Source: Myxococcota bacterium (lineage in GTDB: Bacteria > Myxococcota > UBA4151). From it: a stretch of 64,000 bases of DNA. Shown piece by piece: positions 12,416 through 26,075 of the stretch. The stretch is from positions 2,557 to 66,556 of the forward strand of contig JBDQPD010000002.1 of assembly GCA_040260805.1 (NCBI GenBank), written 5' to 3'. Both the position numbers and the translations under genes were made by a program. Numbering within the stretch: position 1 is the stretch's first letter; the number at the start of each line of letters is the position of its first letter. The notes below the pieces were generated by a model. It saw nothing but the letters and a program-made list of their open reading frames with translations, ran no database searches and was not told the DNA's origin.

Positions 12416-13174
12416 TTGGACTTTGCAACACTAGTCGGTCTGATCGCTGGTATCGGCTTAGTTACCAGCGCTATCGTCACTGGCGGCAATGCCATTATCT
12501 TCGTTAACCCACCCTCGTTGATGATCGTGGTGGGTGGAACGATTTCGGTCATTTTGATGAAATTCCCCGCCGGCGAGGTGTTTAATTCGCTCCGGGTCAT
12601 GAAAAATGCATTCTTTTTCCAAGCGCCCTCCGCCGTTGCAATCATCAATCAGATTATTGAAATGGCCATGCTGGCTCGAAAAGAAGGCGTGCTCGCTCTT
12701 GAAAGCGTTGAGCCCGAAGATGAATTCTTACGCTCAGGTATCCAGCGCGTCGTCGACGGCGTCGACACAGGTCACATCAAAAGAGCGATGAACCAAGAGC
12801 TCGACCAGATGGTGGCTCGTCATGACGTCGGCATTTCGGTCTTTAAAATGGGCGGAGATATCGCCCCAGCCTTCGGCATGATCGGAACCCTGATCGGGCT
12901 GGTGAAGATGCTGTCCTCGATGGAAGATCCGTCAGCGATTGGTCCGGCGATGGCGATCGCTTTGCTGACCACCCTCTATGGCGCTCTGATGGCTAATGTC
13001 TTCTTCTTACCGATCGCCGACAAACTGGCTTTTCGGTCAGAACAAGAGCTCTTCGCTCGAAAATTGATGGTCGATGGCATTCTGGCGATCGGCCGGGGAG
13101 AGACCAACCCCAATCAGCTCAAAACGATGCTCGGCGCCAACCTTGCGCCCAAGGAACGCGAGCAACTGGAGTAG
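12416..13174 (+). CDS. MotA/PomA-family stator proton-channel protein (AglR-like)
   Basis: 252 aa. Near-colinear with Vibrio PomA as I recall it (MDxATLxGLIxG...IVVGG...LMKF...DPxAIGPAMAxALLTTLYGA...PIADKL). Confidence 0.8.
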   Translation: MDFATLVGLIAGIGLVTSAIVTGGNAIIFVNPPSLMIVVGGTISVILMKFPAGEVFNSLRVMKNAFFFQAPSAVAIINQIIEMAMLARKEGVLALESVEPEDEFLRSGIQRVVDGVDTGHIKRAMNQELDQMVARHDVGISVFKMGGDIAPAFGMIGTLIGLVKMLSSMEDPSAIGPAMAIALLTTLYGALMANVFFLPIADKLAFRSEQELFARKLMVDGILAIGRGETNPNQLKTMLGANLAPKEREQLE

Positions 13175-13180
13175 GCGCTG

Positions 13181-14065
13181 ATGGAAGAGGAGCTCCCACC
13201 AGTCCTTGAGGACAGCGAACTCTTCGCTAGTGCTCATGAGACCATCGCAGCTGCGATCGCCGAGCTCGATGATGAGCCGGCTGTCAGTGCCATTCCTGAC
13301 GATGAATTCGACGACGAAGAAGAAAAGATACGCTACAAAAAAGTGTTCATCGGCGCGCCTATGTGGGTGGTGACCTTTGGCGACTTGATGAGTTTGCTGC
13401 TGACCTTCTTTGTGCTGATTCTAAGCTTCTCGACGATGGACCCGGTCAAGTTTAAGATCGTCCGAGGGTCACTAGACACGGCGTTAGGCATTCAAAAGAA
13501 GGTGACGGCGACCAGCGTCCCGCGCGCCGACAACATGATGGCGACCGAATTTAACCGACGCGACTTCAACAAACAGATTGAGAGCGTGCTCAAGAAGGCG
13601 CTGCGCGACACCTTCCCTCCAGGGCAAGAGCCCGGTCGTGTCGAGAAGGTGATCGATATTCGCGGTGAGGTCGTTCGCTTCATCGCATACGACCTCTTTT
13701 TACCGGGCAGCGAAGCGGACGCCCCTAAAGCCAAAACGGTCTATCAGGTGATGGCCGACACCTTGGTCCAGATGGAGGCTCGAATGGAGGTTCGCGGGAT
13801 CGCCCTCGAGCGCTTCTCGCGCGACCTTAGGCAACGCGGTCAAGCACGCGAAGATGGGGTCGTACCCGTTCGAGTCGCGGCTCGACGTGCGGTGATCGCT
13901 AGTCAAAAAGTCCAAAGCCGGCGGAAGCGCGAGATCAGCAGCCGAACGGTCCTACCTGCAGTCACTCCAGGTGTCGCTACACCCGAGCCTCCAGGCGTCG
14001 TGAACATGACCGAATTCGTGTTTCTAGCGCCTGATCGGGTGAGCGCTAAAGCGGGTAATCCATGA
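13181..14065 (+). CDS. MotB/TolR-like stator partner with acidic N-terminal extension and no recognisable peptidoglycan-binding domain
   Basis: TM plug motif APMWVVTFGDLMSLLLTFFVLILSFS is shared with the next gene. The periplasmic part is divergent. Confidence 0.6.
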   Translation: MEEELPPVLEDSELFASAHETIAAAIAELDDEPAVSAIPDDEFDDEEEKIRYKKVFIGAPMWVVTFGDLMSLLLTFFVLILSFSTMDPVKFKIVRGSLDTALGIQKKVTATSVPRADNMMATEFNRRDFNKQIESVLKKALRDTFPPGQEPGRVEKVIDIRGEVVRFIAYDLFLPGSEADAPKAKTVYQVMADTLVQMEARMEVRGIALERFSRDLRQRGQAREDGVVPVRVAARRAVIASQKVQSRRKREISSRTVLPAVTPGVATPEPPGVVNMTEFVFLAPDRVSAKAGNP

Positions 14066-14847
14066 CCAAAGTTGTACTTAAAGTCACTCGAGGAGCGCCC
14101 GCTTGGGTGGTGACCTTTGGCGATCTGATGAGCCTCCTGCTCACCTTCTTCGTGCTCTTACTGAGTTTCTCGCGTGTCTCGGTCTCGCAACGCTACCAAG
14201 AGGTCAACGGCACCTTGAAAAACGCCTTTGGCTTGGCTCAAACTAAAAATGTATCGCCACCATCAGCGATGGACCTCATCAAGATCACCGATGACTTTAC
14301 GATGACCGCAACCAAGATTGAAGAAGAGCTCCGTAAAGAGGTCGTGCCGCGCTATCCGCTCGACGAAAAGGAGATCGAAAAGCCTGAGGTTATCCGAAGA
14401 AAAGACCGGGTAATTCTGCGCTTCAACGGCGAGGCGATGTTTCCATCTGGAAAGCAAGAGATCGACCCGAGGTTTCATGCGTTTTTGGATGGGGTTGCGA
14501 CCAAAGCGGTGGCGAACCGAGTGAACACGATCATCGAAGCGCACACGGACAACGTCTCTTTTAGGACGCGGCTGTTTTCATCAAACAGTGACCTGAGCAT
14601 GGCTCGAGCGGCACAGGTTGCTGCCTACATCACGAGCGTTCAGCGTTTGCTGCCCTCTCGAGTTTTAGCCGTCGGAAAAGGACCTTATGAACCGTTGCAT
14701 CGCAACAACACGCGGGAGCGCCGGGCGATGAACCGGCGCATCGAAATTCAGTTCGTCGAAAATATGGCTGAAAAAGGTAGCCTTCGACTCGGAACTGATA
14801 AAGGCGTGCGCTTTGAAATCGGCGGTAAGAACAAAAAAGTCCCATGA
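14062..14847 (+). CDS. MotB/PomB-like stator protein with OmpA-type C-terminal peptidoglycan-binding domain
   Basis: APAWVVTFGDLMSLLLTFFVLLLSFS TM segment. C-terminal OmpA-like motifs (HTDNVSF...SNSDLSMARAAQVAAYI...RRIEI). ATGA overlap with the upstream gene. Confidence 0.75.
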   Translation: MTKVVLKVTRGAPAWVVTFGDLMSLLLTFFVLLLSFSRVSVSQRYQEVNGTLKNAFGLAQTKNVSPPSAMDLIKITDDFTMTATKIEEELRKEVVPRYPLDEKEIEKPEVIRRKDRVILRFNGEAMFPSGKQEIDPRFHAFLDGVATKAVANRVNTIIEAHTDNVSFRTRLFSSNSDLSMARAAQVAAYITSVQRLLPSRVLAVGKGPYEPLHRNNTRERRAMNRRIEIQFVENMAEKGSLRLGTDKGVRFEIGGKNKKVP

Positions 14848-15632
14848 TCTGGTTACTCAATCGAACCCATAGTGATGCGGCTCACCAGGCTGCTCAGGAT
14901 CTGCATCAGTTCGCTCTTGGTGAGGGTATTGAGTGTCGTATTTTAGAGCAAAGCAGCAACCCCAGCGCCGAGGACATGATGATCGTCCTCGGCGGCGATG
15001 GCACGTTGATTCAGGCTGCCAGGCGGTTCGCACATCTGGGCTTGAGGATGGTTGCGATCAACTTAGGCCGCCTCGGCTACATCACCAGCTTTAGTGCGGA
15101 TCAAGCTCGCTTTGCGCTCACTGCAGCGGCATCGGGAGCGCTGGTCGAGGATGTACGTCTGAGGCTGTCGGTTCGATGGGCAGACCAAGAAGCCGTCGCT
15201 CTAAACGAAGCCTTGATCACCTCAGGTCAGCCAGGACGTATCTGCTCACTAGCGCTTGCGATCGACGGCCAACCCGCCACCGCTTTGCGTGGCGACGGAG
15301 CTCTTGTGGCGACGCCGACCGGCAGCACCGCCTACGCCTTGAGCGCTGGTGGTCCTGTTTTACTGCCCGGGCTCCAGGCCTTAGTGGTGGTGCCCGTGGC
15401 GCCGCACTCGATTCGTTTTAGACCGCTCGTATTGCCGCCACAGCGAGTCCTGTCGATGCGTCCCGAAGAAGACGCATGGCTGGTGCTCGACGGCCAAGAG
15501 CGACTTCGGATTGAAGCCGGAACTGAAGTCACGCTCGATGGCACCGCGCCGGCTTTGCGCTTGCTCAAAGAGCCGTCCCATGAACACCTCGTGACGCTGC
15601 GCGACAAACTGCACTGGGGTGAATGGTCATGA
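14844..15632 (+). CDS. nadK: NAD kinase
   Basis: GGDGTL and NLGRLGYIT motifs. Conserved nadK-recN adjacency. ATGA overlap with motB. Confidence 0.85.
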   Translation: MIWLLNRTHSDAAHQAAQDLHQFALGEGIECRILEQSSNPSAEDMMIVLGGDGTLIQAARRFAHLGLRMVAINLGRLGYITSFSADQARFALTAAASGALVEDVRLRLSVRWADQEAVALNEALITSGQPGRICSLALAIDGQPATALRGDGALVATPTGSTAYALSAGGPVLLPGLQALVVVPVAPHSIRFRPLVLPPQRVLSMRPEEDAWLVLDGQERLRIEAGTEVTLDGTAPALRLLKEPSHEHLVTLRDKLHWGEWS

Positions 15633-17296
15633 TCGCCGAGTTGAGCATTCAAAATCTTGTGCTCGCTGATCAGATCCGCATTCAACTTCAACCCGGACTG
15701 GTGGCGCTGACTGGTGAAACAGGCGCAGGAAAAAGTTTGATCGGTCAAGCGCTTCACCTCGCCGCCGGAGGGCGCGCTAAAAGCGGCTTGATTCGGCGCG
15801 GTGAAGACGAAGCGCGAATTGATCTCGTGCTCCAGTTCGAAGGCAGCGCTCAGCGTTCGATCGACCGAGACCTGAAGGCGCTCGGACTTCCGCAAAGCGA
15901 AGACGGACGCATCGTCGTTCGTCGGGTCCTCAAGGCATCGGGCGGCACACGGTCTTGGATCGGTGGCTCAGCGGTCAGCCTACGCAGTCTTCAAACGCTC
16001 TGGAAAAATCGGCTCATGAGGATCGATCAAGGGGCAGCGACGACGCTCAACTCGACCACAGGTCGCTTAGCCCTTTTGGATCGTGCACTGCCTCGCACGG
16101 CGCCGGTCGAAGCGATGAAACAAGCCGCTGAACAATGGCACGCTGCTCAAGCTGAACTCGAGCGGCTGACCGACCAACTCGAGAGCCAGCGTGATCAGCG
16201 AGAGATGATTCGCCACTGGGTCGATGAGTTGATCGAGTTTGCGCCGGCCGACAGCGAATATGACGAGTTGCTCGACACCCGACGGCTGGTGCGAAGCCAA
16301 CGTCAACAGCGAGCGGCTTTGCAGCGAGCAGAGACGGTGATCGGCAGTGACAAGGGGATCTTGTCGTCTTTAGGTGAGATGCGACGGATCGCAGCGACGG
16401 CTGTTGATGCCGAGCCCCTGTATGAGCTGGTCGCTCAGGCGGACCATGCGGTGGATAGCTACCTTAGACAACTCCAAGAGCAATCGACCGATCTGGTCAA
16501 AGTCGACGAAGACGCGCTGCAAGAGCGCCTGTTTCGCTGGCGCGATTTGGCGCGCAAGCACCGCTGCAGTGAACCTGAGTTAACCGAACGCTTCCGCGAG
16601 CTGACGGCGCAACTCGAGCAGCTTGATGCGCCTGAAGAGGTTCTCGCCGAGGCTAGTCAGCGAGCCAGCCAGGCTCGCCTTAACGCTGAAACAGTCGCCC
16701 AAAAATTGAGTGACCAACGACTGAAGGCGGCGAAGCGAGTTGAAACCTCGCTCACGGAGTTGCTGCCAGGCTTAGGTTTCCAGGGCGCCAAAATGAAGCT
16801 GTCGCTGAGTAGGAAACCCCAACTCAATGCATCGGGCTGGGATCAACTCGACCTGCTCTTTCAGGCCAATCCGGGCGAAGGGTTCACGCCGGTTCAAGAC
16901 GGTGCGTCTGGGGGCGAAAAGGCTCGCTTGTTGCTGGCTTTGGATTGCTCACTGCCGCGCACCGACAGCCTGAGCACCGTATTTTATGACGAAGTGGATG
17001 CAGGTATGGGCGGAGCAGCCGCAGCGGCGGTCGCCCGTTTACTCGCGAATCAAAGCCGAGCGGTTCAGGTCTTGGTTATCACCCATCAAGCGGCGGTCGC
17101 TGCAGCCGCCGATCAACACCTCGCGGTGCATAAAGCGACGAAAAAAGGCAGGACGCTGCTTTCCACGCATACGCTCAACCCTTCAGAGCGAGAACATGAG
17201 CTTGCGCGCATGACCAGCGGTCACGTCGCGCCAGAAGCTGCCAAAGCGGTGGCTCGTGCGCTGATCGATGAGGGCGGCGCCCATGCGACTGTTTGA
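15623..17296 (+). CDS. recN: DNA repair protein RecN (SMC-like ATPase)
   Basis: Walker A GETGAGKS, central coiled coil, C-terminal signature and Walker B (LLALD...FYDEVDAGMGG). Confidence 0.9.
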   Translation: MVMIAELSIQNLVLADQIRIQLQPGLVALTGETGAGKSLIGQALHLAAGGRAKSGLIRRGEDEARIDLVLQFEGSAQRSIDRDLKALGLPQSEDGRIVVRRVLKASGGTRSWIGGSAVSLRSLQTLWKNRLMRIDQGAATTLNSTTGRLALLDRALPRTAPVEAMKQAAEQWHAAQAELERLTDQLESQRDQREMIRHWVDELIEFAPADSEYDELLDTRRLVRSQRQQRAALQRAETVIGSDKGILSSLGEMRRIAATAVDAEPLYELVAQADHAVDSYLRQLQEQSTDLVKVDEDALQERLFRWRDLARKHRCSEPELTERFRELTAQLEQLDAPEEVLAEASQRASQARLNAETVAQKLSDQRLKAAKRVETSLTELLPGLGFQGAKMKLSLSRKPQLNASGWDQLDLLFQANPGEGFTPVQDGASGGEKARLLLALDCSLPRTDSLSTVFYDEVDAGMGGAAAAAVARLLANQSRAVQVLVITHQAAVAAAADQHLAVHKATKKGRTLLSTHTLNPSEREHELARMTSGHVAPEAAKAVARALIDEGGAHATV

Positions 17297-18467
17297 GGCT
17301 CACCTCGACGATCGGCATCAACCGCTTGCAGAGCGGTTACGGCCGCGCACCGCGCAGGACGTTATCGGACAATCGCACCTGCTCGAACCTGGGGGGTTGT
17401 TAGCTCGCTTACTCGCCGCAGAAGAGCTCCCGTCGATGATTTTATGGGGTCCTCCAGGGGTCGGCAAAACCACCTTAGCTCGACTTCTTGCGACCAACGC
17501 CCGAGCCGCATTTGAAGCCCTATCGGCAGTTCAAGCCGGGATTTCAGATCTCAAGGTCTTGCTGGAACGAGCGAGCGAGCGGTTAAATTTCCACAACCAA
17601 ACGACGGTCTTATTTCTCGATGAGATTCATCGCTTTAATAAAACCCAACAAGACTTCCTCTTGCCTCATGTCGAATCCGGTCGCCTGGTGTTGCTCGGCG
17701 CAACCACTGAGAATCCTGGCTTTGCGGTCATCCCTGCCTTGCGCTCGCGGTGCATCAGCGTCGCCCTTCAAGGATTGGATGAGGACGATTTAAAAAGCGT
17801 CATCTCGCGCGGTCTGGACTGCCTAAAAGCGCAGGCAGAAGAACCCGCTATCGAGTTACTCGTTCGCTGGTCTCAAGGAGACGCTCGGCGGAGTCTCAAC
17901 CTTCTAGAGTGGTCCCACAAGCTCGCTCATGGCGAGGTCATTACTGCTGAGCTCGTAGCGACCGCGGCGGACCGACCGGCCGTACTCGCCGATCGCAACG
18001 GCGACCATCACTACGATACGATGTCGGCGCTGATCAAAAGCATGCGCGCTTCCGATGCAAACGCCGCGCTCCACTATCTGGCTCGAATGCTTGAGGCCGG
18101 CGAGGACATCACTTTTATCGCGAGAAGGTTGGTCATCTTCGCCTCTGAAGACATCGGCAACGCCGCGCCCATGGCTTTGGTTGTGAGCCAGTCAGCAGCC
18201 GATGCGGTTCGCTTTATTGGTCTGCCGGAAGCCGCGTTGACGCTCAGTCAGGCGGTCACATTTTTAGCTGACGCCCCTAAATCCAGAGCCTGCACTGAGG
18301 CGATCCGCGCCGCTCGAGCTGACCTTCAAGATGGAGCTTGGCCAGAGATTCCTGCGCGCTTACTGAATCGAAAGCGACCCCACGACGTTAGTATGGGGCA
18401 ACAAGAGTCTGGTCCGCTCTTGCCTAAGGCGCTAGCAGACCGGTGTTACTATCCCAAAAGAGAGTAA
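17268..18467 (+). CDS. rarA: Replication-associated recombination protein A (MgsA/RarA AAA+ ATPase)
   Basis: GPPGVGKTTLA, LFLDEIHRFNK, and C-terminal MgsA helical domain. The start could instead be ATG 17283 (MRLFEAHLDD). Both candidate starts overlap the recN end. Confidence 0.9.
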   Translation: MRAAPMRLFEAHLDDRHQPLAERLRPRTAQDVIGQSHLLEPGGLLARLLAAEELPSMILWGPPGVGKTTLARLLATNARAAFEALSAVQAGISDLKVLLERASERLNFHNQTTVLFLDEIHRFNKTQQDFLLPHVESGRLVLLGATTENPGFAVIPALRSRCISVALQGLDEDDLKSVISRGLDCLKAQAEEPAIELLVRWSQGDARRSLNLLEWSHKLAHGEVITAELVATAADRPAVLADRNGDHHYDTMSALIKSMRASDANAALHYLARMLEAGEDITFIARRLVIFASEDIGNAAPMALVVSQSAADAVRFIGLPEAALTLSQAVTFLADAPKSRACTEAIRAARADLQDGAWPEIPARLLNRKRPHDVSMGQQESGPLLPKALADRCYYPKRE

Positions 18468-18470
18468 GTG

Positions 18471-18647
18471 ATGAGTCAAGAACCCACCGCAGCAGAGCTT
18501 GCCATGCTACAAGGCAATAACGCCGCAGCCGTCAAACAAGCTGGTGAGGATGTACCCCATGAGCTGGTACGAGATCCCATCTACGCGATGATCTATGTCG
18601 GCGGTTTAGCGGTCTATGGGCTTCTTATTGCTGTATTCTTACTCTAA
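18471..18647 (+). CDS. Small (58 aa) protein with hydrophobic C-terminal helix; too short to appear in the ORF track
   Basis: ATG 3 nt after the rarA stop. MSQEPTAAELAMLQGNNAAAVKQAGEDVPHELVRDPIYAMIYVGGLAVYGLLIAVFLL. Its stop codon sits inside an AAGGAG Shine-Dalgarno for the next gene. Confidence 0.4.
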   Translation: MSQEPTAAELAMLQGNNAAAVKQAGEDVPHELVRDPIYAMIYVGGLAVYGLLIAVFLL

Positions 18648-18656
18648 GGAGATGCC

Positions 18657-19625
18657 ATGCTGTGGTTAATGTTGGTTCTCGGGGCGATGTCGCCCTCGAA
18701 ATCGATTCAAGGTCTCGCCAAAGACCGGCGAGCAATGAAACAACTGCGCACTTTTCCCGGGATCAAGTCCTGCAATAAATCGTGGGTTTTGCGACGCTCG
18801 AACTCCGAGGGCGATCTTTGCCGGATGGCTTTGCTCGCTTCGACCGCAAAAGATGGTCGCAACGTGCGCAAGAGCTCCAAAAAGTATGAGAACATGACGG
18901 TCAAGCGAGCCAAATACCTGGTCGAAGCCATCGAGCATGCAGAGCGCGCCGCAAAGAAACTGACCAAAGGCAAAGTCGCCAAGCAATGGAAGCTGCTCAA
19001 GGCAGCACGCGCCATCAGCGCGGTGTGTCCGATTATTGATGACCTCAAGCAAGAGGTCGCCATGGCGCCCTTATCGGCGCGCAAAGCTCGAGGTTTATCA
19101 TCTTCTCTAAAGCCTGGAGTGACCGCCCGGCAGGCGACCTGCCGATGCATCAGCGCGCTGCGGACAGTGGTCACCCCCCTAAGGTCGAAGAAACCATTTG
19201 TGGTCAAAGCGCGCGATCAGATCAGTATGTCAGGCTGCGTCGCGCAGCGGCTCGAGGTGGCTCGCGCCACTCAATACGTCGCGCCGAAACGTAGCCGCTT
19301 CTCGGATGAAGGGCGCGCTCAGCGTGTCGCGGATAAAAAACGAATCGCAGCGCCAGACCGGCGCGCTGCGGCCATGAACCTGATCGAACGCCATCGCAGT
19401 GAGATCAACGCCTGCGCAGCCGAAGCTCGTAAACTTGGCGGCAACCGAGGCAAGCGCGCTAAGCGTATGTCTCGCTGCATCTGCTCGACGGCTCGCGGTT
19501 GGCGCTTTGCGCCAGGCAAACCGATGACGCTCGAAGAAAGAGCGACCAGTGGAACCCTAGTGCTGCGCCTAAAGACCGGCGCTCGAGGGCGCGTGAAAGC
19601 ATGCGGAGTGATCGTCAAGAAGTGA
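18657..19625 (+). CDS. Hypothetical, very basic (K/R/A-rich) 322-aa protein with hydrophobic N-terminus
   Basis: Perfect SD AAGGAG at 18646-18651, 5 nt before ATG 18657. Same strand as the surrounding operon. It overlaps the mutS2 start by 25 nt. Third-codon GC cannot separate it from the antisense ORFs, which share the wobble position. Confidence 0.45.
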   Translation: MLWLMLVLGAMSPSKSIQGLAKDRRAMKQLRTFPGIKSCNKSWVLRRSNSEGDLCRMALLASTAKDGRNVRKSSKKYENMTVKRAKYLVEAIEHAERAAKKLTKGKVAKQWKLLKAARAISAVCPIIDDLKQEVAMAPLSARKARGLSSSLKPGVTARQATCRCISALRTVVTPLRSKKPFVVKARDQISMSGCVAQRLEVARATQYVAPKRSRFSDEGRAQRVADKKRIAAPDRRAAAMNLIERHRSEINACAAEARKLGGNRGKRAKRMSRCICSTARGWRFAPGKPMTLEERATSGTLVLRLKTGARGRVKACGVIVKK

Positions 19626-21994
19626 GCGATTCGCTCCATCTTAATCGCCTAGACAGTTGGCTGGAACAGCACGCCTGTACACCCTACGGTCGAGAGCTAC
19701 TTGAGCGAGTCAAACGAGTTGAAGGGCTTGAGCTTGAGCGGCGCTTCGAGGCAGCTCAGGCGTGGTCAGAAATCCTCGAACGCGAACGCCCACCGATTCT
19801 AAGCCTCGATGATGATTGCCGACCTGCGCTGTCGCATCTGCAACGCAAAGGCGAGCTTGACGGCGTGCAGCTCAACTCGATTCGAGCGTTGCTTCAGGTG
19901 TTATCGGATCTGCGCCGACTCGAATCCGCAAGCGCGGCAAGCATCAGCGGCTTAACGTCAGCGCTTGGCGAGTACGACGATGCGCTTCAGCGTCTGCATG
20001 CCAGCATCGCCGCCAATGGTGAGCTGCTCGACAGCGCCAGCGCCGAGCTCGGTCCGCTGCGTCACCGGCGCGACGCGGCGCGCAGGCGGCACGCCCAGCT
20101 CGCCGACAGTCTACGCGATGAGCTGCATACAGAGGGCCACTTATCCGACCGCTATGTTACCCAGCGTGAAGACCGGCATGTGCTGCCGATCAAGGCAGCG
20201 TCCAAGCGGCAGTTTGGCGGCGTCATTCACGACGCTAGTCGATCCGGAAAGACCGCGTTCGTCGAGCCCGCTAGCTTGCTCGAAGCGGGCGCAGCGGTTC
20301 GACACGCCGAAGAGGCTGTGACCGCTGAAGAGAAGAGAATCCTCAAGCGCTTATCGCAAATAATTGCCGAGCATGCCGGCGAGCTATCCGACGATCTCAA
20401 GGTCCTCGCTACCCTCGACTCAGATCGAGCGCGCGGCTGTTTTAGTCGACGCTTTCATGGGGTGATCCCCACGTTTCAGCGGCAACGAATTCGGCTCAAA
20501 GCCCTCAAGCCGCCAGCGCTTCTTTTAGCGGATGTGACGCCGGTGGTGCCGGTCGACCTTGAGCTTGAAGACCCGGCGCGCATCTTGATTATCAGTGGGC
20601 CCAACGGGGGGGGTAAATCCGTGGCGCTGAGCGCCTGCGCTTGGGCTTTCGAACTCGCTCACCAAGGCATACCCATCCCAGCCCAAGAGGTGACGCTCCC
20701 GGCGCCACCTTACTCGCTCTGCGCAGTGATCGGTGACGCCGCTGACGACCGCCAGGCTCACTCTACATTTTCAGGTCATCTTGGAGCGCTTCAAGGCGCG
20801 CTCGAACATCATCAGAATCCAAGCTCACTGATTGTGATCGATGAGATCGCAAGCGGCACCGAACCGATGGCGGGCAGCGCCATCGCTTGCGGATTCTTAG
20901 AGACCTTCGCCGAGGGCGAGGCTTTTGTCGTCGCAACCACTCATTACGATCCCGTCAAACAGCTCGGGTTGAGCGATGAGCGCATGCGAACCGCAGCGGT
21001 ACGAGACCGACGTAACCCAGAGGTTGCTTTCCGGCTTTTCGCGGACGAGGTCGGTGGCTCACACCCCATCAAACTAGCGATCGATCTGGGCTTACCGGAA
21101 CAGGTCATTGAACGCGCCCGAAAGCATCTAGACCCGAACCGACGCGCACGCCTCGACGAGCTCAAGCGACAGCAAACCGAAGAAGCCAATCTCGAGCAAA
21201 TTCGGCGGCAACTCGACCTGCAAGAGCGAACCTTAGCGGAGCGACAAGCCGAGCTCGACAACGAACTCCAAAAGCTCGAGCGATCTCGCGAGAAACAGCG
21301 GGTTCAAAATGCCAAAGCTAAAGCAAAAATCGACACCTTGCGCGGCGAGCGACTCGCTCAAATTGATGCCTTGCGTGAAGAGTTGAGTGAGACCGTCAAA
21401 AAGCTACGCGCAGACCAAGGTTCGCAAGCAGCTAAAGATGGCGACCGGCTCTTTGCCGACGTCAAAGCCCTGCGCAATGAGGCGCAGGCCTTAAGTCTAG
21501 ACGATGAATCACCGACCTTAGACGACTCGATTGAGGTTGGTGATTCGGTTCGTTTATTTTCTGGTGGCAACGTCGGTGTGGTTCAGGAGTTCCGCGGGCG
21601 CAGCGCCGTCGTCTTGGTTGATGGGAAGATGTTCCACTTGCGCAAAGAGCAGCTTCAACGCGTCCAAAAACAAGCACCTAACAAGCCCAAAACCGGCTCG
21701 TCGAAATCGACCAAAAGCAAGAAAGAAAAAACGATAGCGGTGACGGAGTCAAGCGCCCCAAAACTCGACCTGAGGGGACTCCGAGCGCACGAGGCAGAGG
21801 CGCGGATTGATCGATTTTTACAACATCTTTGCGATGTCGATTGCGCAGGGCGTATCATTCACGGCATCGGCACAGGGGCGTTGAGAAAAACAACCTTAGA
21901 CTATCTCAAAAATGGGCCCTGGCGCGTCACCTATCGGCAAGGGTTGAGTAGCGAAGGTTCTGATGGCGTGACGGTGGTCACGGTGGAGAGCTAA
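19601..21994 (+). CDS. mutS2: Endonuclease MutS2 (MutS domain plus C-terminal Smr)
   Basis: Walker A GPNGGGKS, MutS family core, C-terminal Smr domain (LDLRGLRAHEAEARIDRFL...HGIGTGALR). Start chosen at ATG 19601 (MRSDRQEV...). The ORF-track extension back to 19499 is rejected. Confidence 0.9.
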   Translation: MRSDRQEVSDSLHLNRLDSWLEQHACTPYGRELLERVKRVEGLELERRFEAAQAWSEILERERPPILSLDDDCRPALSHLQRKGELDGVQLNSIRALLQVLSDLRRLESASAASISGLTSALGEYDDALQRLHASIAANGELLDSASAELGPLRHRRDAARRRHAQLADSLRDELHTEGHLSDRYVTQREDRHVLPIKAASKRQFGGVIHDASRSGKTAFVEPASLLEAGAAVRHAEEAVTAEEKRILKRLSQIIAEHAGELSDDLKVLATLDSDRARGCFSRRFHGVIPTFQRQRIRLKALKPPALLLADVTPVVPVDLELEDPARILIISGPNGGGKSVALSACAWAFELAHQGIPIPAQEVTLPAPPYSLCAVIGDAADDRQAHSTFSGHLGALQGALEHHQNPSSLIVIDEIASGTEPMAGSAIACGFLETFAEGEAFVVATTHYDPVKQLGLSDERMRTAAVRDRRNPEVAFRLFADEVGGSHPIKLAIDLGLPEQVIERARKHLDPNRRARLDELKRQQTEEANLEQIRRQLDLQERTLAERQAELDNELQKLERSREKQRVQNAKAKAKIDTLRGERLAQIDALREELSETVKKLRADQGSQAAKDGDRLFADVKALRNEAQALSLDDESPTLDDSIEVGDSVRLFSGGNVGVVQEFRGRSAVVLVDGKMFHLRKEQLQRVQKQAPNKPKTGSSKSTKSKKEKTIAVTESSAPKLDLRGLRAHEAEARIDRFLQHLCDVDCAGRIIHGIGTGALRKTTLDYLKNGPWRVTYRQGLSSEGSDGVTVVTVES

Positions 21995-22614
21995 TGCAAA
22001 CGATTGAAGCCGGCTTTAAGATGTTTGAGTGGGACTACGAGACCATTCCTGAGCGACAAGCCGTTCGGTCTGTCTTCAACGGCCGCTCGACGACCTATCA
22101 AGTCTTTGTCATGCGCCTTGAGGGCGAAGGTTTATACCGGTTTGTGATCCTGTGCCCGGTCGAAGCGAAAAGCGATCAGATGCCCTCGCTGAGCGAGTTC
22201 TTACACCGAACCAATGCCAGTTTACCCTTGGGCGCCTTCGAGCTCGATTACGACCGCGGCGGGGTTCGCTGGATCACGAGCGCCGAGACCAATGGTGACC
22301 CCTTACCGCCTCACTGGATCGGCGGTTCGGTCCAACGAGGGCTCACCAGTTTCGAGACCATCTGGACGGAACTCCTAGCGGTCGCAGAGGGTCGTATGAA
22401 TGCAGCTGACGGCGCGCTACGCAGCCAGGTTGCGATGGAGCTTTCGACACTCAATGGTGAACTGCAACCCCAAGGTGTTGAGGTGCGACTCACTCCAATC
22501 GACGATCAATCGGAATTGTGTGTGGAGGTCACGGGAGGCGGATTAGAGCAAGTTCAAACGATGCTCGAATCACTCTTTGGATCCCCTTTACCCTTTGCGC
22601 TAAAAAGCGCCTGA
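21994..22614 (+). CDS. Hypothetical cytoplasmic protein (possibly YbjN-like sensory-regulator / chaperone fold)
   Basis: 206 aa. 1-nt overlap with the mutS2 stop (TAATG). No motif I can assign with certainty. Confidence 0.5.
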   Translation: MQTIEAGFKMFEWDYETIPERQAVRSVFNGRSTTYQVFVMRLEGEGLYRFVILCPVEAKSDQMPSLSEFLHRTNASLPLGAFELDYDRGGVRWITSAETNGDPLPPHWIGGSVQRGLTSFETIWTELLAVAEGRMNAADGALRSQVAMELSTLNGELQPQGVEVRLTPIDDQSELCVEVTGGGLEQVQTMLESLFGSPLPFALKSA

Positions 22615-22623
22615 GGACCTTTT

Positions 22624-23940
22624 ATGAGAATCTTTTTAGTCGTCGCCTTGATGGGCCTGAGCGCGCAGGCAAAGCCTCTTGATCTTAAGGTCAAAGAAAC
22701 GACCTTAGACAACGGCCTTCAAATCGTCTCGGTGGAGCGCTTTTCTGCCCCCACGGTCAGTGTCCAACTTTGGGTTCGAACCGGCTCGAGAAATGAGCGC
22801 CCTGGGATCACGGGAATTGCGCATTTATTCGAGCATATGATGTTTAAGGGCTCCAAGAATCTAGGGCCTGAAAAACACGCTCAAGAGGTGATGAAAATTG
22901 GCGGTCAGCTGAACGCCTACACCACCCATGATGCGACCGTTTATTATGAGGATGTTGCGGTGCGAAACTTCGAGGCGATCTTAGCGCTTGAAGCCGAACG
23001 GTTTCAGCACTTGGACTTGTCGAAAGGGATGCTCGAGAGCGAGCGCGAGGTGGTCAAAGAAGAGCGGCGAATGCGCACGGATAACTCGCCATCGGGTAAG
23101 TTGATCGAAGCCTTCTTTGGAGCGGCTTACCAAGTTCATAATTACCGATGGCCCGTCGTGGGGTGGATGAAGGACCTCAACACCATCAACCTCAAGGACT
23201 GTCAGGAGTTCTTCACCACGCACTACAACCCTAAAAATGTGACCGTTATCATCGTGGGTGCGATCGATCACGACCAGGCGTTTACTCGGGTCAAACACCA
23301 CTTTGGCGGCTGGAAGGCACAGCCTCGAGAAGCACCTGAAGCACAAACTGAACCTGATCTAAAGCAGCGCCGCGAGGAGGTGGTCCGGTTTGCCACGAAC
23401 ACCCCCTTACTGTTGGGCGGCTGGAAGGTCCCTGCGGCTAAAGATGCTGACATTGTGCCCCTTAAATTGCTGGGTAAGATTCTAAGCGATGGCGCATCGA
23501 GTCGTATGTATCGGCAGCTCGTCTACGAAAAAGAGATCGCTCAATACGCTGCTGGGGACGTCCTAACCCAAGTCGACAACAGCCAGTTTTACCTGTGGGC
23601 GGCGGCGAGACCGAACGTCAACATCGACACCGTTGAAGGCGCGATGCTTGAGGTGGTTGAGCAGGTGAAATCCGGTGGTGTTACCGACCAAGAGCTCAAC
23701 CGAGCGAAAGCCCAAGCCGAGTCCGAGTCGGTGGGCAAACTCAAAAAAGCGCACGGTATTGCCAGCTTGCTGGGATGGAGCCTGATGTATCATGGCGATT
23801 GGCGTCCGGCCTTGAGCGAGCTCGATCGGCTGCGAGCTGTCAGCACCGCCGATATCCAGCGGGTGGCGCAAAAGTACCTCTCAAAAGATCGGATTACGGT
23901 GGTCAAACTGCTTCCAGAAGCTCAGGAGGTAACGCCATGA
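22624..23940 (+). CDS. M16 (pitrilysin) family zinc peptidase, secreted
   Basis: Inverted zinc motif HLFEHMMFKG...E. Signal peptide. Confidence 0.85.
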   Translation: MRIFLVVALMGLSAQAKPLDLKVKETTLDNGLQIVSVERFSAPTVSVQLWVRTGSRNERPGITGIAHLFEHMMFKGSKNLGPEKHAQEVMKIGGQLNAYTTHDATVYYEDVAVRNFEAILALEAERFQHLDLSKGMLESEREVVKEERRMRTDNSPSGKLIEAFFGAAYQVHNYRWPVVGWMKDLNTINLKDCQEFFTTHYNPKNVTVIIVGAIDHDQAFTRVKHHFGGWKAQPREAPEAQTEPDLKQRREEVVRFATNTPLLLGGWKVPAAKDADIVPLKLLGKILSDGASSRMYRQLVYEKEIAQYAAGDVLTQVDNSQFYLWAAARPNVNIDTVEGAMLEVVEQVKSGGVTDQELNRAKAQAESESVGKLKKAHGIASLLGWSLMYHGDWRPALSELDRLRAVSTADIQRVAQKYLSKDRITVVKLLPEAQEVTP

Positions 23941-25322
23941 AAAAGCTTCTGCTTGTGCTTGCAGCCTCAGGCTGCGCAACCGCTCCGACGACTTCGAACT
24001 CGACGCGTCAAACGCTTCGCTATGAGGTGGCTGGTGTCTCAGTAATCCAGGTGGTGGATCAGTCGCTTCCCACGGTTCGTATGACCTATCAGTTCCCTCG
24101 CGGCGCGGACGCGGAGCTTGAGAATGAGATCGGTGCCAGCCGACTCCTAGCGAGCTTGATGACCAAAGGTTCAGCCGGACGTTCGGCGATGGAAATTGCT
24201 GGCATGGTCGATGCGCTGGGTGGGTCCGTCTCTGGCTCCGCGAGTCGAGACACGCTTCGCTTTACAGCGGGCGGACTCAGCCGTGACCTTGAAGCCCTAT
24301 CGGACTTGCTCGCGCAGACGGTGCGGCAGCCAAACTTAGACGCTCAGGAGTTTGAGCGACTTAAAAGGCAGACGCTGGCGGGCATGAAAAGCGGCCGCAC
24401 ACGAGGTCAAAACCTCGCTCAAAGCGCGCTGCTCAGGTTGATGTACGCGGGCGACCGGCTCGGCTTGCCGATCGGCGGTAACGAAGCGAGCGTAGCCGCT
24501 CTGAACCTTGAGACCATCAAGGCATTATACACCAAGGCGGTTCACCCAGAAGGTCTGACCATTGGGGTCTTTGGTGATGTATCGAAAGACGCCGTCAGCG
24601 CACTGCTCAAGCGTCAACTTAGCGACTGGAAACCCCAAGCAGCCCCGCTGCGACCAGCCGAGGCGACCTTTGCGCCAAAGGTCAGAATCCACCTCGTCGA
24701 CAAGCCTGATCTGACTCAGGTTAACATCCACTTAGGGCACGCCGGGATTCGGCGAAACCGAAGTGATTACGAGGCGATCACCTTGCTCAACTATGCGCTT
24801 GGCGGCGGCGGCTTCTCGAGTCGATTGATGAAACTCATCCGGTCCGAAAAAGGGCTCACCTATGGGATCCGATCGACCTTCTCATCGGGTGAGCGTGCCG
24901 GGCCCTTCATGGTGACGAGCTTTACTCGAGTGGATAAGGTCCGAGAGCTCATTGACCTAAGCTTTCAGGTGATCACTGAGGTGGCGACGCAAGGGATCAG
25001 CGAGACCGAGCTCGCCGACGCAAAAGGTTATTACTTGGGTTCGTATCCGCTCAGCCTTGAGACCGTTGAGGGCGAGGGCGGCAAGCTGCTTCAAGCCAAG
25101 CGTTATAACCTCGGTGATGACTTCATCAATGCCTACGCCAAGCGGCTCGAAGCGGTCGATTTAGGCACGGTTAATACCTTGGCTAAAAAACTTTTACGAC
25201 CCGATGAGTTGGTCATTGTTTTAGTCGGCCCGAAAGACAAACTGATCGAAACCATCAAGGACTTAGGTTCTGTCCAAGCCAGTTGGTGGGAAGATGATAA
25301 ACCTTTGCCGATCAATCCTTAA
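23937..25322 (+). CDS. M16-family peptidase, non-catalytic-type partner subunit, lipoprotein-like N-terminus
   Basis: Start ATG 23937 (MKKLLLVLAASGCATAP) with SD AGGAGG 7 nt upstream and ATGA overlap. M16 C-terminal domain architecture without an HxxEH motif. Confidence 0.8.
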   Translation: MKKLLLVLAASGCATAPTTSNSTRQTLRYEVAGVSVIQVVDQSLPTVRMTYQFPRGADAELENEIGASRLLASLMTKGSAGRSAMEIAGMVDALGGSVSGSASRDTLRFTAGGLSRDLEALSDLLAQTVRQPNLDAQEFERLKRQTLAGMKSGRTRGQNLAQSALLRLMYAGDRLGLPIGGNEASVAALNLETIKALYTKAVHPEGLTIGVFGDVSKDAVSALLKRQLSDWKPQAAPLRPAEATFAPKVRIHLVDKPDLTQVNIHLGHAGIRRNRSDYEAITLLNYALGGGGFSSRLMKLIRSEKGLTYGIRSTFSSGERAGPFMVTSFTRVDKVRELIDLSFQVITEVATQGISETELADAKGYYLGSYPLSLETVEGEGGKLLQAKRYNLGDDFINAYAKRLEAVDLGTVNTLAKKLLRPDELVIVLVGPKDKLIETIKDLGSVQASWWEDDKPLPINP

Positions 25323-25355
25323 CCTCTTGCGCTTGAGTCACTTCCGCACCATCGG

Positions 25356-26075
25356 TTGGTTATGAATATCGACGTCACCGTTGTCATTCCCGTCTACAAC
25401 GAGGAAATTATCCTCGAAGAGGCTCTTCTTGAGTTGCTCGAGAACCTGCGCGCCCATCAGAGCAGCTTTGAGGTGATCGTTTCAGCCAACGGCTGCGTCG
25501 ATGAGACCGAAGCGATCGCTGAGCGTTTGGCGCAAACCCACAGCGAGCTTCGTCTGCATCGATGCCCAGAGCCCGACTATGGCGAAGCCCTCAAGCAGGG
25601 CATTGAGCTCGCCCGTGGTGACCTCGTCATCTGTGAAGAGATCGATCTATGCGATGATCGTTTTCACCGAACGGCGCTCGCCATGCTCAACGCAGACGCC
25701 GAGCTCGCCATGGTCGTGGGCTCCAAGGCGCTGCCTGGAGCGAGAGATCGCCGGCCCTACTTTCGACGCTTTGCCACTCGGGTGCTCAACCGCATGCTGC
25801 GAACGGCGACCGGCTGGCGCGGCACCGATACCCACGGCCTCAAAGCGCTACGTCGAGACCTGATGCTGCCGGTGGTCGAACGTTGTGAGCTTCGGCGAGA
25901 CCTGTTCGCTTCTGAGATGGTGATCAGAGCTTTTCATATGGGACAACGCGTCGTTGAGTACCCCATTGAGCTGAGCGAAAAGCGTCCACCGAGCATCGGC
26001 TTGATGCGACGCGTGCCCAAGGTCTTAGGTGATATGGGTAAACTGGCTGTGACCGTTCGTCGCAACAACGACTGA
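25356..26075 (+). CDS. Family 2 glycosyltransferase (polyprenyl-phosphate sugar transferase-like)
   Basis: N-terminal VVIPVYNEE Rossmann GT-A motif. 239 aa. Confidence 0.75.
   Translation: MVMNIDVTVVIPVYNEEIILEEALLELLENLRAHQSSFEVIVSANGCVDETEAIAERLAQTHSELRLHRCPEPDYGEALKQGIELARGDLVICEEIDLCDDRFHRTALAMLNADAELAMVVGSKALPGARDRRPYFRRFATRVLNRMLRTATGWRGTDTHGLKALRRDLMLPVVERCELRRDLFASEMVIRAFHMGQRVVEYPIELSEKRPPSIGLMRRVPKVLGDMGKLAVTVRRNND

Follow-up and report, generated by a model that had tools for sequence, protein, structure and literature searches.

A conserved gene pair between rarA and mutS2 in marine Myxococcota encodes a small membrane peptide and a polycationic protein with ten invariant cysteines

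Two open reading frames (ORFs) of a Myxococcota bacterium (GTDB lineage Bacteria; Myxococcota; UBA4151) separate the genes rarA and mutS2. We analysed them within a 64,000-nucleotide stretch of its genome (assembly GCA_040260805.1, contig JBDQPD010000002.1, positions 2,557 to 66,556 of the forward strand), hereafter the window, whose numbering is used throughout. The upstream ORF encodes a 58-residue peptide (the small peptide), the downstream one a basic protein of 322 residues (the large protein). They are two genes always adjacent, always at the rarA-mutS2 position, and restricted to a small lineage of marine Myxococcota. Judged by their sequence evolution, both are conserved under purifying selection, far beyond what is expected of chance ORFs. 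The large-protein family is undescribed: it has no Pfam or NCBIfam model and its database entries carry only the label 'hypothetical protein'. Its polycationic, ten-cysteine body is probably novel, and its C-terminal domain is probably of the TonB-C/AgmX-PglI type, in rearranged form. Our best reading, about as likely as not, is that the large protein is an exported, disulfide-stapled polycation served by a small membrane partner; several cytoplasmic readings are weighed against it below.

Two conserved genes upstream of mutS2

The elements of the locus are the following.

18471..18647, plus strand: small gene, 58 amino acids (aa); ATG at 18471, TAA at 18645-18647, alternative GTG start at 18468
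18646..18651, plus strand: Shine-Dalgarno (SD) sequence AAGGAG, overlapping the small-gene stop and lying 5 nt ahead of ATG 18657
18657..19625, plus strand: large gene, 322 aa, ATG at 18657; polycationic protein with ten invariant cysteines
19622..21994, plus strand: mutS2 (MutS_V + Smr); probable start GTG 19622, with ATG 19601 as the alternative; Pfam MutS_V 2.8e-19, Smr 2.3e-15
17268..18467, plus strand: rarA/mgsA, the upstream neighbour; Pfam MgsA_C 2.3e-40, AAA_assoc_2, AAA and RuvB_N

The sense frame of the large ORF is free of stops over 306-325 codons in 11/11 orthologues, down to 28% identity, whereas each of the three antisense frames is broken by at least one stop in every one of them. 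Differences between the window and its orthologue in locus L008 number 53, 26 and 180 at codon positions 1, 2 and 3; the second position is the least variable, which fits the sense frame and not an antisense frame sharing its wobble position. Ratios of nonsynonymous to synonymous substitution (dN/dS, Nei-Gojobori) for the large gene range over 0.045-0.157 among closer pairs; the pair with the least saturation (L010-L011) gives 0.095, and the one furthest apart 0.29. For the small gene they are 0.12-0.18 where dS is unsaturated, with 0.124 for L010-L011. The SD sequence and ATG of the large gene are conserved across loci, and scans of the region against Rfam and for tandem repeats returned no match. 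The original prediction had left the strand undecided in view of antisense ORFs, and these do exist in the window (128, 166 and 106 aa); conservation nevertheless sits in the sense frame, and both ORFs behave as real plus-strand genes. The idea that the region makes no plus-strand protein, being a long 5' untranslated region of mutS2 or read antisense, could appeal to those antisense ORFs of 106-166 aa and to one antisense frame with a single stop in some GC-richer orthologues, but the intact sense frame, the third-position-dominated divergence, the dN/dS of about 0.05-0.16, the conserved SD and ATG and the missing Rfam match leave it next to no probability: dN/dS and frame integrity already refute it.

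Both junctions bear coupling signals. Upstream, the layout first described is all present in the sequence: a small ORF starting 3 nt after the rarA stop, encoding a C-terminal transmembrane helix and ending within an AAGGAG placed 5 nt ahead of the large ORF. Across all loci the small-gene stop lies in or beside the large-gene SD, 8-15 nt from the large-gene ATG. Read-through or fusion of the two ORFs is ruled out by their frame relation, which differs among loci (0, 1 or 2), together with a stop codon that varies between TAA, TAG and TGA. Downstream, a 25-nt overlap of the large ORF with mutS2 had been proposed. It holds if mutS2 starts at ATG 19601, the start picked by gene callers on the identical contig L001 (where they also set the rarA start 15 nt later, giving 394 aa), and fails with the better conserved GTG 19622, which overlaps by 4 nt. 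The codon matching ATG 19601 is no start codon in L007, L010 and L012, and ATG 19601 is the less likely start because that codon is CTG in L007 and L012. GTG 19622 forms with the large-ORF stop the sequence GTGA, kept in nearly all orthologous loci, and from this comparison is most likely the mutS2 start.

The family is rare. A search of 5.8 billion clustered proteins returned 15 homologues of the large protein at 99-52% identity, the full-length ones 322-324 aa long. An exhaustive profile search of 1.84 billion representative proteins gave 13 hits in all and added three full-length members (36, 37 and 28% identity), the remainder being fragments. Among 185,579 GTDB species representatives the large gene occurs in only 3: two metagenome-assembled genomes of Myxococcota and one single-cell genome labelled Candidatus Hydrogenedens. 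The latter, AG-422-L23 (L008, CACGMS010000002.1; 'uncultured Candidatus Hydrogenedens sp.'), has the pair ahead of mutS2 and a large protein 82% identical to that of the window; its label is probably a misclassification, or the contig a contaminant. Metagenomic contigs with a stated environment come from marine and lagoon samples. Four database proteins (P0010, P0013, P0015 and P0026) contain frameshifts or fusions with the small peptide or MutS2, and inflate the apparent diversity of the family; they are probably frameshifted assemblies or other assembly errors.

Gene order is rarA, small gene, large gene, mutS2, a ybjN-like gene and two M16 peptidase genes wherever a contig extends far enough, and in all cases where rarA and mutS2 can both be seen, the pair stands between them, down to large-protein identities of 36-37%. 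At 6678-8773 of L020, an 82-kb TARA contig, recN is missing between nadK and rarA, yet the pair is kept. A search with MutS2 gives a gradient of 98-56% identity, then a tier at 45-39%, then values of at most 34% in other phyla; both MutS2 proteins looked up in the 45-39% tier have the pair directly upstream. Down to a MutS2 identity of 39%, all relatives examined have a basic protein of this family ahead of mutS2, which answers yes to the synteny question raised with the original prediction. No paralogue of the pair was found in the window or in any fetched locus.

The MutS2 proteins of the clade are themselves divergent, with at most 34% identity to any MutS2 outside it. Deep-branching members (L007 1222-3285; L020 10001-12067; P0034-P0038) have a MutS2 of 686-693 aa without Smr, and those of the window's subclade one of 790 aa with Smr.

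All orthologous loci that extend sufficiently far upstream contain the small gene, which encodes 46-83 aa with a conserved C-terminal helix. In the window, an acidic N-terminal part (net charge -4) with the motif G-N-N-x-A-A-A precedes a single predicted transmembrane helix, RDPIYAMIYVGGLAVYGLLIAVFLL, that runs to the stop; hydrophobicity is strong over the last 23 residues (19-residue Kyte-Doolittle mean 2.37). The helix follows the pattern R-D-P-I-Y-x-x-I-Y-x-G-G-L-x-V-Y-G-x-L-I-x-x-F-L-L and ends at the stop or one residue earlier; the acidic part with G-N-N-x-A-A-A occurs in most members. A subclade with a 46-aa peptide (L010 2288-2428; L011 7970-8110; L013 137-277) lacks this motif. Scans against Pfam, NCBIfam, PADLOC and PHROGs assigned the small peptide to no family. 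The 46-aa peptide of L011 weakly resembles Psb34, an assembly protein of photosystem II (NF033486; 22 bits, with the cut-off at 45), a match below threshold that we set aside as noise, most likely a likeness between transmembrane helices.

A polycationic protein with a probable TonB-C-like domain

Three segments of the large protein recur in what follows.

18657..18698, plus strand: MLWLMLVLGAMSPS, the hydrophobic N-terminal segment, which resembles the h-region of a signal peptide; [ST]-P-[SA] comes after it and no basic residue before it
19248..19304, plus strand: RLEVARATQYVAPKRSRFS (residues 198-216), the linear motif conserved best of all, within the sole long predicted-disordered segment (residues 197-232; pLDDT, the predicted local distance difference test score, below 50)
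19338..19622, plus strand: C-terminal alpha/beta domain (residues 228-322) of three predicted helices and a three-stranded sheet, with C253, C274, C276 and C316 and a W-R-F-x-P-G motif

The 322-aa ORF is as rich in lysine, arginine and alanine as first noted (K 35, R 40, A 45), has 10 cysteines, a pI of 11.25 and a net charge of +53. Across the 13 members compared, K (26-37) and R (32-40) replace one another, yet the net charge remains within +43 to +53: selection keeps the charge, not particular basic residues. The ten cysteine columns (C39, C55, C124, C162, C164, C194, C253, C274, C276 and C316) are all invariant down to 28% identity, and 13/13 members have exactly ten cysteines, never an extra one. 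Cytoplasmic neighbours from the same lineages show variable counts (RarA 2-6, MutS2 4-8, RecN 2-8, YbjN-like 0-4, NadK 1-4), and the fixed number in the large protein thus points to disulfides and export. A bias towards even cysteine numbers is an accepted mark of disulfide-bonded exported proteins (PMC2823432). By domain the cysteines fall 4 + 4 + 2; the protein has no C-x-x-C or histidine ligand motifs, and both C-x-C pairs lie in predicted helices. In such helices the two side chains would face different neighbours, an arrangement that suits two disulfides better than one metal site.

The N-terminus conserves hydrophobicity rather than sequence. Segments as different as MLSIILTLSAVSPA, MLVMSIVLAAYAPS, MLLALALLAAPSPA and MMTTLVFLAITPSA occupy it, among variants such as MLWLMLVLGAM, MLSIILTLSAV, MLVMSIVLAAY, MLLALALLAAP and MMTTLVFLAIT. 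The run spans 9-11 residues (11-residue Kyte-Doolittle mean 2.33) and has low pLDDT. It is followed by a conserved [ST]-P-[SA] in which P13 is nearly invariant, then by about 10 near-neutral residues, and many basic residues appear from residue 22 on. Read by eye, an h-region of the Sec type with small residues at -3/-1 is present.

An AlphaFold2 model built on a 12-sequence alignment predicts a helical body followed by a C-terminal three-stranded sheet (pLDDT 79; predicted template modelling score, pTM, 0.56); only residues 1-10 and 197-232 fall below a pLDDT of 50. The second of these stretches holds the most conserved linear motif, in which R198, L199, V201, T205, Y207, V208, P210, R212, S213 and F215 are invariant among the 12 closer members, T205 and P210 over all 13 including the distant ones.

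Family scans of the 13 members against Pfam, NCBIfam, PADLOC and PHROGs yielded nothing above threshold: isolated weak matches to Hormone_6, LysC, Exc2 and Cas1 were treated as noise, and matches to anti-phage defence or phage families in PADLOC and PHROGs stayed at noise level (E >= 0.03). A sequence-profile search of the PDB with the large protein found no match, and Foldseek of the full model against the PDB retrieved generic helical bundles only (best E 0.023). A tandem-repeat scan indicated that the protein is not low-complexity or repetitive, and an internal duplication, with the middle C...CxC...C unit compared to the C-terminal unit, was rejected (hhalign P 0.25).

The composition and the repair-gene neighbourhood had suggested a nucleoid- or DNA-binding factor of the histone H1 or Hc1 kind. 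This reading is unsupported: no H1, Hc1, HU-type or other DNA-binding family matched the 13 members at E <= 10 in Pfam or NCBIfam, and the predicted fold, the ten invariant cysteines, the signal-like N-terminus and the periplasmic-type domain all speak against it. The case is cautionary, as a K/R/A-rich composition and a position among repair genes hinted at a nucleoid protein and the conserved features point elsewhere.

The one family-level signal comes from the C-terminal domain. Its 95 residues modelled alone give three helices and three strands with a pLDDT of 90.2 and a pTM of 0.75. Twelve of the 13 members weakly match NCBIfam NF033768 (myxo_SS_tail, the AgmX/PglI C-terminal domain; E 4.9e-5 to 0.26), with the matching parts out of order: residues 264-288 correspond to profile positions 55-78 and residues 296-318 to positions 29-51. 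We compared the domain with an alignment (A5) of 16 AgmX/PglI domains, fetched with a consensus and then verified: 16/16 match NF033768 (best E 3e-34), 14/16 also match the TonB C-terminal model TIGR01352, and the short relatives consist of a signal peptide plus the domain. By hhalign, the C-terminal domain aligns to this set with a probability of 73% (P 3.1e-5 over 50 columns), pairing helix 1 with its cysteine and the beta-hairpin across a 33-residue insertion; the N-terminal 228 residues, taken as a control, reach 1.2% (P 0.046). The intervening helix, MSRCICSTARGWRFAP, compared with the canonical second helix, VGRCLVSKVLGWTFPA, gives 6.8% (P 0.0054). NF033768 is characterized by two cysteines, one per helix, and the large protein has an invariant counterpart of each, C253 in helix 1 and C274 in helix 2. 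Taken together, these comparisons suggest that the C-terminal domain is probably related to the AgmX/PglI/TonB-C domain, diverged and with its segments rearranged, and is not a member of NF033768. In GltG and GltJ the AgmX/PglI C-terminal domain, of TonB-C type, is periplasmic (PMC11761067).

Two other candidates were discarded. LC8, the best Foldseek match of the domain model, is no fold match (E 0.16, TM 0.38). The alignment of the control region sets residues 21-70 (window 18717-18866; C39, C55) against the beginning of the AgmX/PglI domain, so that C39 meets the cysteine of its CYE; as a degenerate second copy, this is not significant (the same P 0.046 and probability 1.2%).

Export and its cytoplasmic alternatives

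Export of the large protein is favoured by the signal-like N-terminus, the small-P-small site, the near-neutral residues after it, the invariance of the ten cysteines and the relation to a periplasmic domain; on these sequence features we rate it about a coin's toss. It would make the pair a two-gene module of one marine Myxococcota lineage, inserted between rarA and mutS2 and co-translated with both, in which coupled translation would yield the membrane peptide and the polycation in a fixed ratio. The large protein would leave the cytoplasm via its short N-terminal hydrophobic segment and be cleaved after [ST]-P-[SA]. Five disulfides would then staple it: C39-C55, and those of the sets C124, C162, C164, C194 and C253, C274, C276, C316. 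In the last set, C253-C274 would be the canonical AgmX/PglI disulfide and C276-C316 would pin the relocated beta-hairpin. The polycationic helical body may bind an anionic polymer or a membrane surface in the envelope, and the TonB-C-like domain may dock a partner through an added beta-strand, in the manner of TonB-type domains; a candidate for that strand is the invariant T-x-[YF]-[VI]-x-P stretch of the disordered linker. The 58-residue single-helix peptide would serve as inner-membrane partner or anchor, and the position beside repair genes would reflect operon history rather than function.

Several points weigh against this proposal. At the N-terminus, no member has a K or R before the hydrophobic run, so that the basic n-region of a Sec-type signal is lacking, and the putative h-region counts only about 10 hydrophobic residues. 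A body this basic (24% K+R) is uncommon among Sec substrates and characteristic of nucleic-acid binders. The domain assignment has its own difficulties: NF033768 scores of 11.4-23.4 bits lie below the curated cut-off of 40 in every member, where true members go down to E 3e-34 and one of them scores 104 bits; the canonical order (helix 1, beta-hairpin, helix 2 with W/F-x-F-P, final strand) is not followed and a rearrangement has to be invoked; and Foldseek of the domain model against the PDB returned no TonB-C-like structure, a weak negative as Foldseek is blind to rearranged connectivity. A functional link with MutS2 would also agree with the strict linkage to mutS2, translational coupling included, that is seen in all 13+ loci. 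Finally, the anionic ligand and the docking partner are pure inference.

In the same lineage, an exported M16 peptidase of L020 (12770-14065) starts with MLHLTLMTQLLAAP, which is signal-like and contains no basic residue; its orthologue in the window starts with MRIFLVVALMGLSAQA. If the called start of the L020 peptidase is right, this lineage may tolerate signal peptides that lack a basic n-region.

The pair belongs to a longer string of genes.

12416-26075, plus strand: string of thirteen genes, comprising motA/exbB, motB-plug, motB-plug+OmpA, nadK, recN, rarA, the small gene, the large gene, mutS2, a ybjN-like gene, two M16 peptidase genes and a GT2 glycosyltransferase gene

The thirteen are co-directional, with overlaps or gaps of a few bases, and the string is kept as a block across the clade, forming a 'super-operon' of unusually mixed content. 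Its functions are mixed (envelope, repair, peptidase), the envelope part, a point in favour of export, being made up of motA/exbB, motB-plug, motB-OmpA, the M16 peptidases with their signal peptides and GT2. A promoter and terminator scan of the string found sites at shuffle level and no sign of an internal transcription unit. The recN-rarA-mutS2 run in which the original prediction placed the pair does exist; as a part of this mixed string, it says little on function. In a block of such mixed functions that is conserved as a whole, lying next to repair genes is weak functional evidence, and a 'DNA-repair run' is in itself an unsafe premise, because MutS2 splits collided ribosomes in Bacillus subtilis (PMC10897456).

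The alternative that survives best, a broadened version of the original prediction, takes the large protein for a cytoplasmic polycationic nucleic-acid-binding factor that works with MutS2 and/or RarA and binds DNA or rRNA/ribosomes. Its strength lies in the conservation of net charge with interchangeable K and R, and above all in linkage: the large gene stands immediately upstream of mutS2 in every locus, with a GTGA or abutting junction; the pair accompanies all MutS2 relatives with an examined locus, down to 39%, below which tier (39-45%) MutS2 identities are at most 34%; and it stays by rarA and mutS2 even in L020, where recN is missing. The action of MutS2 on collided ribosomes in B. subtilis (PMC10897456) makes an RNA-binding partner conceivable. 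This reading has to contend, however, with the lack of any DNA- or RNA-binding family or fold match, with ten invariant cysteines and no extra one, unlike cytoplasmic neighbours, with a hydrophobic N-terminus conserved in composition and not in sequence, with a periplasmic domain as the sole family-level signal, and with a conserved, functionally mixed gene order that deprives adjacency of weight. We consider it unlikely; were it true, the large protein would be a new MutS2 accessory factor.

A second alternative keeps the protein on the cytoplasmic face of the membrane. The N-terminal segment would lie N-out/C-in, or in the membrane plane, beside the helix of the 58-aa peptide; the basic body would rest on anionic lipid, and the two four-cysteine sets would bind Zn or Fe-S. 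Under the positive-inside rule, basic residues after a hydrophobic segment and none before it favour an N-out/C-in orientation, and the large protein shows just this distribution, with none before the segment and many from residue 22 on. The 4 + 4 + 2 grouping of the cysteines by domain, and a partner peptide with a transmembrane helix encoded immediately upstream, agree with the proposal. However, 11-14 hydrophobic residues are too short for a normal membrane span, C-x-x-C or histidine ligand motifs are absent and both C-x-C pairs sit in helices, strict avoidance of extra cysteines is unexpected for a cytoplasmic metalloprotein, and the related AgmX/PglI domain is periplasmic. We hold this arrangement to be doubtful.

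A bolder combination would make the large protein a cytoplasmic, membrane-tethered, cysteine-stapled polycation, protamine-like in principle, that is an obligate partner of MutS2 and recruits it to DNA or to collided ribosomes at the membrane. We think this improbable; if true, it would give the MutS2 family an accessory subunit of a new kind, in a clade whose MutS2 is very divergent and, in deep branches, devoid of Smr. Whichever reading is right, the practical yield is modest, namely the validation of two hypothetical ORFs as genes and a proposed correction of the mutS2 start.

Comparison with known systems

Histone H1 and chlamydial Hc1 share with the large protein a high content of K, R and A and a pI above 10.5. 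Proteins of the H1/Hc1 type are low-complexity, mostly disordered and cysteine-free, whereas the large protein is non-repetitive, predicted to be folded and endowed with ten invariant cysteines.

Skp/OmpH (HlpA) is a basic, mostly helical periplasmic chaperone that was once taken for a histone-like protein. The parallel is one of analogy only: a strongly basic, mostly helical protein, here proposed to be exported, whose charge hinted at DNA binding. The two have no sequence or fold similarity, and Skp lacks a disulfide set and is far less basic.

TonB and TolA combine a membrane helix, a charged region (K/A-rich in TolA, K/P-rich in TonB) and a small alpha/beta domain at the C-terminus, which docks partners through strand addition. 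The small peptide and the large protein reproduce this general layout, and 3.6 kb upstream their string contains motA/exbB- and motB/exbD-like genes. In contrast to TonB and TolA, the membrane helix is on a separate 58-aa peptide, which has no histidine and lacks the S-H-L-S motif; the large protein lacks a Pro-rich spacer, and its body is predicted to form a compact helical bundle and not an extended rod. None of the large-protein members has a TonB_C or TolA match in Pfam.

The closest comparison is with the AgmX/PglI domain of GltJ and GltG of Myxococcus xanthus. Both domains are Myxococcota-specific, C-terminal and about 90 residues long; both have a helix-1 cysteine in an 'I..C' context, a beta-hairpin of the form G-x-[LV]-x-[LV]-x-[LF]-x(3-5)-G-x-V and a second helix with a cysteine followed by W/F-x-F-P, for an overall composition of two helices and a three-stranded sheet. 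The large protein differs in joining its domain to a 230-residue polycationic, cysteine-rich helical body without known relatives, in having four cysteines in the domain instead of two, and in the order of the elements, which runs helix 1, helix 2/FP, strand, hairpin. If the export reading is true, the pair would represent an undescribed envelope protein family containing a natural segment-rearranged TonB-C/AgmX-PglI domain, held by an extra disulfide and fused to an extreme polycation, and would bear on the evolution of TonB-type docking domains and on the envelope biology of uncultured marine Myxococcota.

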